Shown here piece by piece: positions 4,464-49,448 of a DNA stretch of 64,000 bases. The stretch lies in assembly GCF_017348835.2 (NCBI RefSeq), contig NZ_CP071375.1; one strand, written 5' to 3'. Source of the stretch: Escherichia coli. GTDB lineage: Bacteria; Pseudomonadota; Gammaproteobacteria; Enterobacterales; Enterobacteriaceae. Each line of letters starts with the position of its first letter. Position 1 is the first letter of the stretch. The position numbers and the translations under genes are program-made. The notes under the pieces were generated by a model. That model saw only the letters and a program-made list of their open reading frames with translations, was not told the origin of the DNA and searched no databases.

Positions 4464-5723
4464 GTGAAAATGTCTCAAAATAAGGCTTTCAGCACGCCAT
4501 TTATCCTGGCTGTTCTTTGTATTTACCTCAGTTATTTTCTACACGGCATTAGTGTTATTACGCTTGCCCAAAATATGTCATCTCTGGCGGAAAAGTTTTC
4601 CACTGACAACGCGGGCATTGCCTACTTAATTTCCGGTATCGGTTTGGGGCGATTGATCAGTATTTTATTCTTCGGTGTGATCTCCGATAAGTTTGGTCGT
4701 CGGGCGGTGATATTAATGGCAGTAATAATGTATCTGCTATTCTTCTTTGGTATTCCCGCTTGCCCGAATTTAACTCTCGCCTACGGTCTGGCAGTGTGCG
4801 TAGGTATCGCTAACTCAGCGCTGGATACGGGTGGCTACCCCGCGCTCATGGAATGCTTTCCGAAAGCCTCTGGTTCGGCGGTCATACTGGTTAAAGCGAT
4901 GGCGTCATTCGGGCAAATGTTCTACCCAATGCTGGTGAGCTATATGTTGCTCAATAATATCTGGTACGGCTATGGGCTGATTATTCCGGGTATTCTGTTT
5001 GTACTGATCACGCTGATGCTGTTGAAAAGCAAATTCCCCAGCCAGTTGGTGGACGCCAGCGTAGCTAATGAATTACCGCAAATGAACAGCAAACCGTTAG
5101 TCTGGCTGGAAGGTGTTTCATCGGTACTGTTCGGTGTAGCCGCATTCTCGACCTTTTATGTGATTGTGGTGTGGATGCCCAAATATGCGATGGCTTTTGC
5201 TGGTATGTCAGAAGCTGAGGCATTAAAAACCATCTCTTATTACAGTATGGGCTCGTTGGTCTGTGTCTTTATTTTTGCCGCACTACTGAAAAAAATGGTC
5301 CGGCCCATCTGGGCTAATGTATTTAACTCTGCACTGGCAACAATAACAGCAGCCATTATCTACCTGTACCCTTCTCCACTGGTGTGTAATGCCGGCGCCT
5401 TTGTTATCGGTTTCTCAGCAGCTGGCGGCATTTTACAGCTCGGTGTTTCGGTCATGTCAGAGTTTTTCCCCAAAAGCAAAGCCAAAGTCACCAGTATTTA
5501 TATGATGATGGGTGGACTGGCTAACTTTGTTATTCCGCTGATTACCGGTTATCTGTCGAACATCGGCCTGCAATATATCATCGTTCTCGATTTTACATTC
5601 GCGCTTGTGGCCCTGATTACCGCAATTATTGTTTTCATCCGCTATTACCGCGTCTTCATTATTCCTGAGAATGATGTGCGGTTTGGCGAACGCAATTTTA
5701 ACACCCCAGTTAAGCACAATTAA
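4464..5723 (+). CDS. ydiN: MFS transporter, paralog of ydiM
   Basis: 419-aa ORF sharing motifs with YdiM (SDKFGRR, DTGGYPALMECFP, IGFSAAGG). Confidence 0.85.
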   Translation: MKMSQNKAFSTPFILAVLCIYLSYFLHGISVITLAQNMSSLAEKFSTDNAGIAYLISGIGLGRLISILFFGVISDKFGRRAVILMAVIMYLLFFFGIPACPNLTLAYGLAVCVGIANSALDTGGYPALMECFPKASGSAVILVKAMASFGQMFYPMLVSYMLLNNIWYGYGLIIPGILFVLITLMLLKSKFPSQLVDASVANELPQMNSKPLVWLEGVSSVLFGVAAFSTFYVIVVWMPKYAMAFAGMSEAEALKTISYYSMGSLVCVFIFAALLKKMVRPIWANVFNSALATITAAIIYLYPSPLVCNAGAFVIGFSAAGGILQLGVSVMSEFFPKSKAKVTSIYMMMGGLANFVIPLITGYLSNIGLQYIIVLDFTFALVALITAIIVFIRYYRVFIIPENDVRFGERNFNTPVKHN

Positions 5724-5747
5724 GCATAGAGGTTAAAGGAGTTAATT

Positions 5748-14936: not shown

Positions 14937-14989
14937 TCATGCATCCCACAGGCCCGCATCTCGGGCCTGATGTTCTGTTTCGAGAGTCC

Positions 14990-16638
14990 AAAATGAAAGT
15001 GACATTAACGTTTAACGAACAACGTCGTGCGGCGTATCGTCAGCAAGGGCTATGGGGCGATGCTTCGCTGGCCGATTACTGGCAGCAGACCGCTCGTGCG
15101 ATGCCAGACAAAATTGCCGTGGTCGATAATCATGGAGCATCGTACACCTATAGCGCGCTCGATCACGCCGCGAGCTGTCTGGCAAACTGGATGTTAGCGA
15201 AGGGTATTGAATCAGGCGATCGCATCGCATTTCAACTGCCAGGCTGGTGTGAATTTACCGTTATCTATCTTGCCTGCCTGAAAATCGGTGCGGTTTCCGT
15301 ACCGCTGTTGCCTTCCTGGCGGGAAGCAGAACTGGTATGGGTGCTCAATAAGTGTCAGGCAAAATGTTCTTTGCACCGACGTTGTTTAAACAAACGCGTC
15401 CGGTAGATTTAATCCTGCCGCTGCAAAATCAGCTTCCACAACTTCAACAAATTGTCGGCGTGGACAAACTGGCTCCCGCCACCTCTTCCCTCTCATTAAG
15501 TCAGATTATCGCCGACAATACCCCACTGACCACGGCGATAACGACCCACGGCGATGAATTAGATGCGGTGCTGTTTACCTCCGGAACCGAGGGTCTGCCA
15601 AAGGGCGTGATGCTTACGCATAACAATATTCTCGCCAGTGAGCGGGCTTATTGCGCGCGGCTGAATCTGACCTGGCAGGATGTCTTTATGATGCCTGCGC
15701 CACTCGGCCACGCAACGGGCTTTCTGCATGGCGTAACGGCACCATTTTTGATTGGTGCTCGCAGCGTGTTGTTAGATATTTTCACTCCTGATGCGTGTCT
15801 CGCGCTGCTTGAGCAGCAGCGTTGCACCTGTATGCTCGGCGCAACGCCGTTTGTCTATGATCTTTTGAATTTAGTAGAGAAACAACCCGCAGACCTTTCA
15901 GCGCTGCGCTTCTTTCTTTGCGGCGGTACCACAATCCCCAAAAAAGTGGCGCGTGAATGCCAGCAGCGCGGCATTAAATTATTAAGTGTTTATGGTTCCA
16001 CAGAAAGTTCGCCGCATGCGGTGGTGAATCTCGATGATCCTTTGTCGCGCTTTATGCACACCGATGGTTACGCTGCCGCAGGTGTAGAGATTAAAGTGGT
16101 CGATGACGCACGCAAGACCTTACCGCCAGGTTGCGAAGGTGAAGAAGCCTCGCGTGGCCCCAATGTGTTTATGGGGTATTTTGATGAACCTGAATTAACC
16201 GCCCGTGCCCTGGATGAAGAAGGCTGGTATTACAGCGGCGATCTCTGCCGCATGGATGAGGCTGGCTATATAAAAATTACCGGACGCAAAAAAGATATTA
16301 TTGTCCGCGGCGGCGAAAATATTAGCAGCCGTGAAGTGGAAGATATTTTATTGCAGCATCCTAAAATTCACGATGCCTGTGTGGTTGCAATGCCCGATGA
16401 ACGTTTAGGTGAACGATCATGCGCTTATGTCGTGCTGAAAGCGCCGCATCATTCATTATCGCTGGAAGAGGTGGTGGCTTTTTTTAGCCGTAAACGGGTC
16501 GCAAAATATAAATATCCTGAACATATCGTGGTAATCGAAAAACTACCGCGCACTGCCTCAGGTAAAATACAAAAGTTTTTGTTAAGGAAAGATATTATGC
16601 GGCGATTAACTCAGGATGTCTGTGAAGAGATTGAATAA
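14990..16638 (+). pseudogene. fadK: Short-chain acyl-CoA synthetase fadK, disrupted by a -1 frameshift
   Basis: N-terminal frame (track 14939..15406) and C-terminal frame (track 15352..16638) are both FadK sequence but in different frames; they join at ..NKCQAK / MFFAPTLFKQ across the run GGCAAAATGTTC at 15359-15370. Confidence 0.7.
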
Positions 16639-44290: not shown

Positions 44291-45094
44291 TTATGCTGGC
44301 AACGGCCCGTTTTGTATAGGGGCCGTTGCCTTACTTTTTAAATGTTCCATCGCGGCGATGCATACTGACTCATATTTAAACAGATCGTCAGCGAAAAAAA
44401 TGTCCAACTTATCAATACATTCCTGGCTCAATAAATGTGCCTGTAGCGAGAAGCTTAAAACCTCATACCCGAGACGTTTTCTAAGTGAAATATCTGAAAT
44501 ACTCATAATATCTTCAAGCACACCACTTCCCATTCCCGGAAGATTTAGTGGATTAAAAAGAAGATTGATATTAAGCATTGATATTATCGAAGGGAACTTC
44601 AGTAGATGCTCATTATTTTGAATCGCAGCAAAAATGCTCCCGGCAGGATGTATATAATTTTTTTCATAGTATATAGTCCTTAAATAATGAATAACCAACC
44701 TGTTTTTTATATTGATCAAATTGGTCATTTTTTCTGGGCGAAATACAGAAGTGACATCCATTCCAATAAAATCTTTATTTATACCTCTTATCCGAATTTC
44801 ACTACCATAAAGATTATTAATTATTACTTTATATTTAGCATTGTCCTGCAGATACGTATCAAAACTAAGTGCTGGCGCTCCTGGCTTTGAGGCATCAAAG
44901 TTAATGTTAGACATATAGGCAATCATATAATTAAAATTTGATTCTGCTATTTCATCGCAGTCACATTGACCCGTTGATATAAAGAAAGTGAGTGCTGTCA
45001 TAGTAGACTGCAGCCTTTCTTTAAAAGAGTCGAAAGCCAGGCTTTTAATATTTAAATCACCATAATTACTCTGTATTAAGTTTGTAGAAAACAT
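44291..45094 (-). CDS. ydjO: Uncharacterized AT-rich protein YdjO
   Basis: ORF track 44291..45106 (271 aa); probable start at the internal Met (MFSTNLIQ) preceded by SD-like AGGTGGGAG. Confidence 0.65.
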   Translation of the reverse strand: MFSTNLIQSNYGDLNIKSLAFDSFKERLQSTMTALTFFISTGQCDCDEIAESNFNYMIAYMSNINFDASKPGAPALSFDTYLQDNAKYKVIINNLYGSEIRIRGINKDFIGMDVTSVFRPEKMTNLINIKNRLVIHYLRTIYYEKNYIHPAGSIFAAIQNNEHLLKFPSIISMLNINLLFNPLNLPGMGSGVLEDIMSISDISLRKRLGYEVLSFSLQAHLLSQECIDKLDIFFADDLFKYESVCIAAMEHLKSKATAPIQNGPLPA

Positions 45095-45162
45095 CTCCCA
45101 CCTCATATTGAACCGCCCCGGAAATCCTGGAGACTAAACTCCCTGAGAAAGAGGTAAACAGG

Positions 45163-45489
45163 ATGACTAAAAATACTCGTTTTTCCCCCGAAGTCCGTCA
45201 GCGGGCGATTCGTATGGTTCTGGAAAGTCAGGATGAATATGACTCACAATGGGCGACAATTTGTTCCATTGCTCCAAAGATTGGCTGTACGCCGGAGACT
45301 CTGCGTGTCTGGGTTCGCCAGCATGAGCGGGATACCGGGGGCGGTGATGGCGGGCTCACCACCGCTGAACGTCAGCGTCTGAAAGAGCTGGAACGTGAAA
45401 ATCGTGAACTGCGCCGCAGTAACGATATCCTTCGCCAGGCTTCCGCTTATTTTGCGAAGGCGGAGTTCGACCGCCTCTGGAAAAAATGA
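45163..45489 (+). CDS. IS3-family transposase OrfA (HTH DNA-binding part)
   Basis: 108-aa [19 protein letters not shown]... with leucine-zipper-like C-terminus; recalled as IS629-type OrfA. Confidence 0.85.
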
Positions 45490-46376
45490 TGCCACTGCTG
45501 GATAAGCTGCGTGAGCAGTACGGGGTCGGACCGCTATGCAGCGAACTGCATATTGCCCCGTCAACGTATTACCATTGTCAGCAACAGCGACATCATCCGG
45601 ATAAACGCAGTGCCCGTGCGCAGCACGATGACTGGCTGAAGAAAGAGATACAGCGCGTATACGATGAAAATCACCAGGTATACGGTGTGCGTAAAGTCTG
45701 GCGTCAGTTGTTACGGGAAGGTATCAGAGTGGCCAGATGCACTGTGGCACGTCTCATGGCAGTTATGGGACTTGCCGGTGTTCTCCGGGGTAAAAAGGTC
45801 CGCACTACCGTCAGCCGGAAAGCCGTTGCCGCATGCGACCGCGTAAACCGTCAGTTCGTGGCAGAACGTCCAGACCAGTTGTGGGTGGCTGATTTTACCT
45901 GGGTAAGCACATGGCAGGGCTTCGTTTATGTGGCGTTCATCATTGATGTGTTCGCCGGATACATCGTGGGATGGCAGGTCTCATCATCCATGGAAACAAC
46001 ATTCGTGCTGGATGCACTGGAGCAGGCGTTGTGGGCCCGTCGGCCGTCCGGCACAATCCATCACAGTGATAAAGGTTCTCAGTATGTATCGCTGGCCTAC
46101 ACGCAGCGGCTTAAGGAAGCCGGATTACTGGCATCAACAGGGAGTACTGGCGACTCGTATGACAACGCGATGGCGGAGAGCATCAATGGTCTTTACAAAG
46201 CGGAGGTAATACACCGTAAGAGCTGGAAAAACCGGACAGAAGTGGAACTGGCCACACTCACGTGGGTGGACTGGTATAACAATCGACGATTGCTGGAAAG
46301 GCTGGGCCATACTCCCCCGGCAGAAGCAGAAAAAGCTTATTATGCTTCCATCGGAAACGATGATCTGGCAGCCTGA
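45486..46376 (+). CDS. IS3-family transposase OrfB (DDE catalytic part)
   Basis: 296-aa frame in -1 relative to orfA; integrase-core motifs; A6 run at 45481-45486 is a candidate slippery site. Confidence 0.85.
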
Positions 46377-46695
46377 GTTCACAGATAAAACACTCTCCAG
46401 GAAACCCGGGGCGGTTCATATTGTTAACAAAATTATTATCTCATTTAAATCTAAGTCATTTACAATATAAGTTTAAGAGCGACGCCACAGGATGAACTAT
46501 CAAAAATAGCTCATCATGATTAGCAAAACTTAACCATTTTAAAATAAATAAACAATTAAAGAAAAAAGATCACTTATTTATAGCAATAGATCGTCAAAGA
46601 CAGCTTTTTGTTACAGGTGGTTTGAATGAATGTAGCAATGAAATACAGAATTTCAGGCCATGTAACTCCCGGCAAAACCGGGAGGTACGTAATCT

Positions 46696-46938
46696 TTACT
46701 CAGTCACTTCCCCTTCCTGGCGGATCTGATTTGCCCAACGCTGGGCGGATTCAGGCACAGTAAACGCCGGTGAGCGCAGAAATGACTCTCCCATCAGTAC
46801 AAACGCAACATATTTGCCACGCAGCATCCAGACATCACGAAACGAATCCATCTTTATCGCATGTTCTGGCGGCGCGGGTTCCGTGCGTGGGACATAGCTA
46901 ATAATCTGGCGGTTTTGCTGGCGGAGCGGTTTCTTCAT
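46696..46938 (-). CDS. cedA: Cell-division modulator CedA
   Basis: 80-aa frame MKKPLRQQNRQIISY inside track ORF 46696..46959. Confidence 0.85.
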   Translation of the reverse strand: MKKPLRQQNRQIISYVPRTEPAPPEHAIKMDSFRDVWMLRGKYVAFVLMGESFLRSPAFTVPESAQRWANQIRQEGEVTE

Positions 46939-47140
46939 TACTGGCTTCACTAAACGCATATTAAAAATCAGAAAACTGTAGTTTAGCCGATTTAGCCCCT
47001 GTACGTCCCGCTTTGCGTGTATTTCATAACACCGTTTCCAGAATAGTCTCCGAAGCGGGGTCTGGCTGGTGGTCTATAGTTAGAGAGTTTTTTGACCAAA
47101 ACAGCGGCCCTTTCAGTAATAAATTAAGGAGACGAGTTCA

Positions 47141-49402: not shown

Positions 49403-49410
49403 ATATGGAT

Positions 49411-49438
49411 AAGGTCACGTCCCCTGGGGAGTGACCTT
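49411..49438. terminator. Hairpin in the katE/chbG convergent gap
   Basis: AAGGTCAC / GTGACCTT stem; no strong U-tract. Confidence 0.35.
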
Positions 49439-49448
49439 ACCACCTTAC

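Follow-up and report, generated by a model that had tools for sequence, protein, structure and literature searches.

The ydjO-cedA spacer of this Escherichia coli genome raises the question whether an insertion sequence next to the start codon of ydjO has cut the gene off from its promoter, and with what consequence. The window, i.e. the whole stretch of 64,000 nucleotides that was analysed, holds one IS629-type copy (45109..46418), which lies in this spacer. The best overall explanation, in which we have good confidence, is a single, lineage-specific insertion of an intact IS629/IS1203-type element that displaced the ydjO promoter.

The element is a complete IS629/IS1203-type insertion sequence of the IS3 family (+ strand, 1,310 bp), its boundaries being set by the inverted repeats and by alignment with empty sites. 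The left terminal inverted repeat (IRL; 45109..45133, + strand), defined by comparison with its right counterpart, starts with 5'-TG, faces ydjO and reads TGAACCGCCCCGGAAATCCTGGAGA. The right repeat (IRR; 46394..46418, + strand) ends with CA-3', is turned towards the displaced ydjO promoter and the 3' end of cedA, and has the reverse complement TGAACCGCCCCGGGTTTCCTGGAGA. The outermost 13 of 13 positions were identical and 22 matched over 25 bp, i.e. the repeats are imperfect, as the initial annotation had described them. The element ends of TGAACCGCCCCGG...CCGGGGCGGTTCA with their terminal TG/CA, together with the length, agree with the IS3 family (about 1.2-1.55 kb).

Flank comparison identified a TAT on the left (45106..45108) and on the right (46419..46421), the two copies of a 3-bp target-site duplication. 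When duplication lengths of 2-7 bp were tested the flanks agreed at 3 bp alone, in line with the 3-4 bp (up to 5 bp) of the IS3 family. Deletion of 45109..46421 gave a gapless alignment to the ydjO-cedA spacer of K-12 MG1655 with one TAT, located in CTCATATTGTTAAC, and the IS-deleted sequence was 100% identical over 600 bp to that of the close relative F2_81/F2_18C, which also has a single TAT. Because the deletion restores the empty sites of both K-12 and F2_18C, the TAT duplication needs no chance argument. Read from the DNA, the duplication and the matching empty site prove one ordinary transposition event into the ydjO-cedA spacer, as had been proposed along with the K-12 alignment as a check. 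The statement that the K-12 reference lacks the element was also borne out: the site is empty in MG1655, and K-12 is without IS629 according to Rump et al. (2011).

The chance that an assembler had placed an IS copy between ydjO and cedA is practically negligible. The genome has many IS copies (32 matching places) and the window hardly departs from the PE164 assembly (7 substitutions in 64 kb), which would give such an error some room. Against it stand exact termini, a perfect 3-bp duplication and a matching empty site; moreover, an independent draft breaks off within the IS, 228 nt past the identical junction. This draft, GCA_034296255.1, matched the window with 100% identity along 4,046 bp spanning the left junction, and on the strength of the shared junction we rejected an assembly artefact.

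IS629 with its isoforms IS1203, IS1203v and IS3411 is best known in Shigella sonnei and in EHEC O157:H7, O26, O103 and O111. By the convention of ISfinder, isoforms share at least 95% nucleotide identity. The element showed 13 differences in 1,310 nt, i.e. 99.0% identity, to the depositor-named IS629 of phage BP-4795 (AJ556162.1), which was used as the reference in place of the S. sonnei ISfinder type sequence and relative to which it ranks as an IS629 isoform. The corresponding 'OrfA/OrfB protein of IS629' were identical at 106 of 108 and 293 of 296 residues, respectively. Identity to the copies in O157 Stx2a phages was 98.2%. The variant is rare, since among the 7,016 matching records from complete E. 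coli genomes just 18 reached at least 99% identity.

The coding capacity is that of an IS3-family member. orfA (45163..45489, + strand; ORF list) encodes 108 aa with an HTH_Tnp_1 domain (Pfam PF01527), the DNA-binding part of the transposase; the exact OrfA protein recurs in many plasmid and phage contexts. orfB (45486..46376, + strand; ORF list, Pfam, NCBIfam) encodes 296 aa, is shifted to the -1 frame with respect to orfA and contains HTH_21 and an rve core, so that the Pfam domains of the element's proteins are HTH_Tnp_1, HTH_21 and rve. OrfB matched rve with 8.8e-25 and has the DDE triad of the family in the form DD(35)E, with D136, D195 and E231 as catalytic residues, 35 residues between the second D and E, and K238 at +7. 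It scored 311.8 bits with NCBIfam NF033516 (cutoff 160). The orfA stop and orfB start overlap (AAAAAATGATG) next to an A6 slippery run (45481..45486, + strand), from which a programmed -1 frameshift to a 404-aa OrfAB is predicted. The overlap, the frames 0/-1 and the candidate A-rich slip site conform to the ORF arrangement of the IS3 family, and PGAP describes the PE164 copy as a two-piece CDS labelled 'programmed frameshift'. A predicted frameshift-stimulating ALIL pseudoknot (Rfam RF01497; 45444..45560, + strand), also present in the PE164 annotation, matched model positions 1-117 of 117 with 120.2 bits (gathering score 50; E = 5e-32), as is characteristic at the isoform level. Judged by its sequence, the element is an intact IS3-family member of the IS629/IS1203 type, and the initial description as a complete IS629-like element was correct. 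Family membership would imply a copy-out-paste-in mechanism via a circular intermediate with a junction promoter.

How widespread is the insertion? With 500-bp queries both junctions were found in one of 5,426 complete E. coli genomes, that of PE164 (O108:H9, pig), and about 4,258 of these genomes have the uninterrupted empty site. The junction also occurs in at least one independent draft assembly among the matches listed, beyond which there are 15 similar contigs. On the evidence of these assemblies more than one isolate carries the insertion. JGI metagenome contigs gave no match to the exact 37-nt left junction. F2_18C, with its empty site, differed from the window by just 9 substitutions in about 37.7 kb, and ynfC presents the reverse case, being interrupted in F2_18C and intact in PE164. 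PE164 has 32 IS-matching places versus a median of 4 per genome, and 23 IS1203-type copies are given for F2_18C in PMC6985150. We infer that the insertion is recent and lineage-specific within O108:H9 / ST302-related porcine E. coli and that it forms part of an IS629/IS1203 expansion still under way there.

An old insertion, with the empty sites of the relatives arising by precise excision, e.g. through the IS-excision enhancer (IEE), is highly improbable. Precise excision of IS629 promoted by IEE has been described (PMC9330008), and at 1-2% divergence from the siblings examined the ydjO copy is not obviously one newly derived from them. Yet a site occupied in a single complete genome and empty in thousands, together with a nearest complete relative that is empty and has near-identical flanks, makes one gain the more parsimonious account.

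A search for the donor copy found none. The Qin-prophage copy of PE164 (98.9% identical) and the ynfC copy of F2_18C (98.2%) were both rejected as donors. The sibling copies are flanked by AAA and GGT target-site duplications. The exact OrfB, searched as 296-aa and 295-aa forms with either V125 or A125, is on record nowhere else, and because no form is on record the donor copy is not traceable by OrfB look-up. The nearest matches were fragments in a plasmid context, one 99.8% identical over 1,150 bp and one 99.5% identical beside katP; these matches are suggestive only.

ydjO (44291..45094, - strand; ORF list) is an intact orphan gene of 267 aa, the A of its ATG being at 45094 according to the K-12 annotation and PGAP. 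YdjO had no match in Pfam or NCBIfam, and it is described as specific to E. coli/Shigella and without known function (PMC11057252). The upstream neighbour cedA (46696..46959, - strand; ORF list) is on the same strand and uninterrupted; 275 nt separate its 3' end from the right-hand TAT and 277 nt from IRR. The initial annotation had put the IS about 15 bp upstream of the ydjO start and against the ribosome-binding site. The position stands, the measured distance from the ATG to IRL being 14 nt, and the Shine-Dalgarno sequence GAGG (45101..45104, - strand), read directly from the DNA, is retained 4 nt from the IS end.

A consensus scan located the ydjO promoter ATGACT-16-AATAAT at 46432..46459 (- strand), i.e. 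on the far side of the IS, where it now fires into IRR. The same hexamer pair was assigned to ydjO by RpoD genomic SELEX and carries an H-NS flag (Shimada 2014, PMC3946193). This sole published ydjO promoter is defined by binding in SELEX together with predicted hexamers. The spacer is classed as a 'promoter island' (PMC3661553), and a lenient scan gave 11 weak promoter candidates in it. Promoter-like and terminator-like matches in the region were not in excess over shuffled sequence, and among the scan matches we used that coinciding with the published promoter alone. The insertion point is thereby shown to lie between the -10 box of the sigma-70 promoter of ydjO and its Shine-Dalgarno sequence. 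The distance from promoter to gene has grown by 1,313 bp versus the empty site, which supports the earlier view that ydjO is separated from its native promoter.

It had been suggested that ydjO now depends on read-out or on a hybrid promoter formed with the IS end, or is silenced. In IS3 elements the -35 that points outward is part of IRR, and IRL has a -10 that points inward (PMC9330008). The end adjoining ydjO is IRL and not IRR, the end at which an IS-generated fusion promoter would arise. A consensus scan of the ydjO strand from 45420 to 45090, with thresholds of at least 3/6 plus at least 4/6, found no outward promoter-like pair. A hybrid promoter was thus rejected for ydjO, and because IRL faces the gene and no outward promoter was found it is the least likely of the three options.

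A fall in ydjO transcription is what we would rather expect from the insertion. The displaced promoter would read antisense through 1.3 kb of untranslated, C-rich IS before reaching ydjO, and IRL would supply no outward promoter in compensation. The predicted new leader of 1,334 nt contains 28.8% C versus 24.6% G and has no ORF of at least 30 aa behind a Shine-Dalgarno-like motif. By the polarity principle a long untranslated leader with C over G is a classic Rho substrate, and the IS stretch may thus be well suited to Rho-dependent polarity.

Largely preserved expression, with the native promoter or read-through from cedA crossing the IS antisense to give a translatable message with an intact Shine-Dalgarno sequence, is unlikely. 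The intactness of promoter, Shine-Dalgarno sequence and start codon on the same strand speaks for it. So does the antisense strand, which is without a strong intrinsic terminator and has 2 weak terminator-like matches, not above shuffles. RNA folding gave no sign that IRL-derived RNA would occlude the ydjO Shine-Dalgarno sequence (z = +1.5), i.e. the IS-derived leader adds no such structure. However, the Rho-prone leader described above argues against preserved expression, and convergence with transcription of the transposase genes would add interference.

Activation of ydjO, by disruption of a silencing complex that H-NS forms on the AT-rich spacer or by a cryptic outward promoter in IRL, is distinctly improbable. 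The spacer is flagged as H-NS-associated (PMC3946193) and as a promoter island (PMC3661553), and H-NS-silenced loci are generally known to be switched on by IS insertions (reviewed in PMC9330008). Furthermore, IS1A has inserted independently into the same promoter in 2 other genomes. Yet the IS follows the -10 box instead of preceding the promoter, the outward -35 of the IS3 family belongs to the other end, IRR (PMC9330008), and even lenient thresholds gave no outward promoter-like pair. IS1A came to lie between the -35 and the -10 box, which points to inactivation or neutrality and not to selection for activation.

Reduced transcription remains our preferred outcome. ydjO is an orphan with low expression and an association with H-NS, for which reason the insertion is probably nearly neutral and best viewed as a clade marker. 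If H-NS already silences ydjO, the measurable change may be nil. It is improbable that more is at stake: either the host promoter would produce full-length antisense transposase RNA as a brake that locks the IS copy, with ydjO, if expressed at all, depending on a 1.3-kb leader, or an H-NS-bound orphan would be de-silenced and contribute to a phenotype of the lineage.

Intergenic IS629 insertions are routine in EHEC/EPEC-type E. coli. The initial observation is correct, its biology is already known, and the public PE164 record already carries an annotation of the copy. The ydjO site is without mention in the text of the ST302/F2_18C paper that was covered by the terms ydjO and cedA (PMC6985150), in the IS-related passages of the PE164 paper (PMC12233904), and in main-text passages of Rump 2011. 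Mechanistically the insertion is of small importance and biologically unsurprising; its use is that of a strain marker. The junction is amenable to PCR scoring and tells a PE164-like sub-clade apart from the closest ST302 relative. In addition, it is further evidence of active IS629/IS1203 transposition in an emerging porcine aEPEC/ExPEC lineage and provides a natural promoter-uncoupling allele of an E. coli/Shigella-specific orphan gene.

Compared with known systems, the element shares with IS629/IS1203/IS1203v/IS3411 the same 1,310 bp, the TGAACCGCCCCGG termini, a 108-aa orfA, a 296-aa orfB, the -1 frameshift and ALIL, and its 3-bp TAT duplication is within the range of 3-4 bp published for IS629. 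It differs from other IS629 copies as a rare sequence variant with an OrfB unrecorded elsewhere in exact form. The architecture is also that of IS911/IS2/IS3, the paradigm of copy-out-paste-in with junction promoters, by which IRR would be expected to carry the outward -35 and IRL the inward -10; here, however, ydjO abuts IRL and reads away from it, so that the IRR-proximal hybrid-promoter mechanism is inapplicable.

Insertions of IS1 and IS5 activate the H-NS-silenced bglGFB operon, where the IS is outside the core promoter and relieves silencing. The ydjO locus resembles bgl in having an IS in an AT-rich, H-NS-associated regulatory region, but its IS separates the -10 box from the Shine-Dalgarno sequence and uncouples the promoter from the gene. 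A further parallel is IS-printing, for which Ooka in 2009 reportedly exploited IS629 insertion-site polymorphism in O157:H7 strain typing. Such polymorphism was likewise used to type O157:H7 strains in Rump 2011, which lists 47 sites. The lineage here differs from O157:H7 in being porcine O108:H9 / ST302-related aEPEC/ExPEC, yet as in O157:H7 a site that is present or absent among near-identical genomes is usable as a clade marker.

Reading of the window between 44000 and 47400 together with a computation of the element ends placed the IS at 45109..46418 (1,310 bp), with TGAACCGCCCCGG at its 5' end and CCGGGGCGGTTCA at its 3' end. As the initial annotation had it, the terminal inverted repeats are imperfect, 22 of the first 25 positions being identical including all of the first 13, and TAT stands on both flanks (45106-45108 and 46419-46421). 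Among duplication lengths of 2 to 7 bp 3 bp alone agreed. The element carries orfA (45163-45489, 108 aa) and, one frame back, orfB (45486-46376, 296 aa), which overlap at AAAAAATGATG. To its left lies ydjO (44291..45094, minus strand, 267 aa), to its right cedA (46696-46959, minus strand) and katE. The distance from the ydjO ATG to the IS end is 14 nt, close to the 15 bp first estimated, and the GAGG Shine-Dalgarno motif of ydjO is 4 nt from that end.

OrfB matched NCBIfam NF033516 (IS3 family transposase) with 311.8 bits at a cutoff of 160, and the OrfAB fusion contains the Pfam domains HTH_Tnp_1, HTH_21 and rve. OrfB has its catalytic residues at D136, D195 and E231; exactly 35 residues lie between the latter two, and E231 is followed by a K at +7. 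The ALIL frameshift pseudoknot was recognised by Rfam over its full length at 45444-45560 (120.2 bits, gathering score 50). All sequence-readable defining features of the IS3 family were present in the element. The closest copy among deposited phage records was that of BP-4795 (AJ556162.1) with 99.0% identity over 1,310 bp (13 nt differ, and the proteins by 2 aa for OrfA and 3 aa for OrfB); copies of O157 Stx2a phages were 98.2% identical. Identity as IS629 was judged against AJ556162.1, whose depositors named the copy IS629 OrfA/OrfB, rather than against the ISfinder type sequence. Rump et al. (2011) describe IS629 sub-types as 4-5% apart, with isoforms IS1203 and IS3411, and as generating 3-4 bp duplications without a sequence-specific target. 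Because of the family, domain and pseudoknot matches, the catalytic residues, the BP-4795 match and this description we conclude that the element is, by its sequence, a complete and intact IS629-type IS, as had been proposed.

Removal of 45109..46421 and alignment to K-12 MG1655 (NC_000913.3) gave a gapless match through CTCATATTGTTAAC with one TAT, and K-12 has no annotation between ydjO (1812329-1813132) and cedA (1813421-1813663). The site is empty in the reference, and the absence of IS629 from K-12, given in the initial annotation, is stated by Rump et al. (2011). The rebuilt 600-bp empty site was 100% identical in F2_81 (CP043542; published name F2_18C) and was unbroken in about 4,258 of 5,426 complete E. 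coli genomes. Each 500-bp junction query was covered in exactly one of these 5,426, PE164 (NZ_CP114128.1), at 100%. The element thus entered, in one event, a site that is conserved elsewhere. Within the ydjO ribosome-binding region the window has A at 45100 and K-12 has G (GAGGTGGGAG versus GAGGCGGGAG); because two empty-site relatives (L008 and L010) have A too, this base has no connection with the insertion.

PE164 2761049-2825048 aligns collinearly with the window, with seven substitutions (12978, 15563, 25965, 45859, 47364, 51092 and 56406) and no indels; T/C at 45859 changes OrfB residue 125, V in the window and A in PE164. The window may stem from a sister isolate or from a different version of the assembly. 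PE164, a hybrid aEPEC/ExPEC of serotype O108:H9, came from a piglet in Nanjing (PMC12233904). F2_18C, an aEPEC of ST302, came from a pig in Australia, and of its 52 intact ISs its authors counted 23 as IS1203 or IS1203-like (PMC6985150). Between F2_18C and the window there are 9 substitutions over about 37.7 kb. Three of these are among the seven window/PE164 differences; there F2_18C has the PE164 allele, so the window alleles are private. Because a strain with the empty site is this similar, the insertion is, as judged from these alignments, younger than a very recent split from F2_18C. The reverse pattern was seen at ynfC, which is split by an IS1203-type copy with the duplication AAA in F2_18C (L022 1451-2760) and whole in PE164 (L023 18342-19052); hence the IS appears to be still mobile in this lineage. 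Its copies within the lineage diverge by 1-2%, so several sub-types coexist, and PE164 has 32 places matching the IS versus a median of 4 per genome. Draft contigs were chosen by encoding exactly the YdjO allele of the window. At least seven of them have the empty site, and the occupied junction was confirmed in at least one (GCA_034296255.1), which stops 228 nt inside the IS with an identical junction and 100% identity over 4,046 bp; 15 similar places were among the matches. The insertion extends, as these assemblies indicate, beyond a single one. The left junction had no match in JGI metagenome contigs, a search for the exact OrfB as a separate gene record returned none, and a search for a donor copy yielded plasmid-context fragments as the nearest.

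A consensus scan located ATGACT-16-AATAAT at 46459..46432 on the minus strand, the hexamer pair of the constitutive RpoD promoter, flagged for H-NS, that Shimada 2014 (PMC3946193) assigned to ydjO from genomic SELEX; this is a SELEX-plus-prediction assignment rather than a mapped 5' end. Promoter-like matches in the AT-rich spacer region were not above shuffled sequence, and the spacer is on a 'promoter island' list (PMC3661553). At the empty site the -10 box is followed by TAT after 10 nt, and the predicted ydjO start about 7 nt past this box (~46425) is a few bases ahead of the insertion point. The IS puts 1,313 bp between this predicted promoter and ydjO, in agreement with the proposed separation of the gene from its native promoter. 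A 53-codon ORF antisense to the IS (46258-46419, minus strand) begins about 6 nt past the predicted start, with an ATG composed of the last two IS bases (CA) and the first flank base (T); it has no Shine-Dalgarno motif and is probably meaningless. An IS1A lies between -35 and -10 of the same promoter in two unrelated human isolates, 1368KP (NZ_CM173843.1; L007 ~1330-2100) and EC09 (NZ_CM169492.1), at a point near window 46447 that is about 26 bp away from the IS629 insertion point. Because these insertions are independent, the spacer has been struck by ISs more than once; it is disrupted in at most about 1% of genomes.

The initial annotation had considered a hybrid promoter at the IS end as a driver of ydjO. 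IS3-family elements have an outward -35 in IRR and an inward -10 in IRL (PMC9330008). Because ydjO adjoins IRL, from which it is transcribed away, the usual route is closed, and scanning the ydjO strand between 45420 and 45090 at lenient thresholds (3/6 or more plus 4/6 or more) returned no promoter candidate versus 11 in the native spacer. We rejected the hybrid promoter, and activation of ydjO by the insertion is very unlikely. Transcription starting at the displaced promoter would give an RNA with a predicted leader of 1,334 nt, antisense to the transposase gene, with 28.8% C versus 24.6% G; no ORF of at least 30 aa preceded by a Shine-Dalgarno-like motif was found in it. Such an RNA would be of the kind terminated by Rho, and read-through sufficient to keep ydjO expressed is given a small chance. 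RNA folding added no structure over the ydjO Shine-Dalgarno motif, so any block would be transcriptional. We favor the view that the insertion probably lowers ydjO expression. YdjO matched no family in Pfam or NCBIfam and is described as an uncharacterised protein limited to E. coli/Shigella (PMC11057252); a fitness effect would not be expected.

The published YdjO qPCR forward primer TTCTCGCTACAGGCACATTC (PMC11057252) is perfect in K-12 and has a 3'-terminal mismatch (...ATTT) at window 44433-44452 (minus strand); the reverse primer is perfect in the window. The efficiency of this E. coli water-quality assay could drop in this lineage. Elsewhere in the window fadK (14939-16638) is present as two overlapping ORFs (14939-15406 and 15352-16638); the PE164 annotation lists both fadK and ydiN (4470-5736) as frameshifted pseudogenes, which may reflect true gene decay or sequencing errors in homopolymers. 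Between thrS and yniD lies espL1 (35054-36952), an intact gene for a type III effector, consistent with the aEPEC background. The katE-chbG spacer has 46 bp (49403-49448) versus 257 bp in K-12 (L004 11130-11386), where it has REP-type palindromic repeats that the window strain lacks.

The text of the ST302 paper (PMC6985150), searched for ydjO and cedA, has no mention of the ydjO site, nor has that of the PE164 paper (PMC12233904), searched for IS-related terms. RefSeq already lists the PE164 copy as a transposase of the IS3 family, with programmed frameshift and ALIL pseudoknot (spelt 'AL1L'). Taken together the reading of the insertion in the initial annotation is correct, and the event is an ordinary and already known one.
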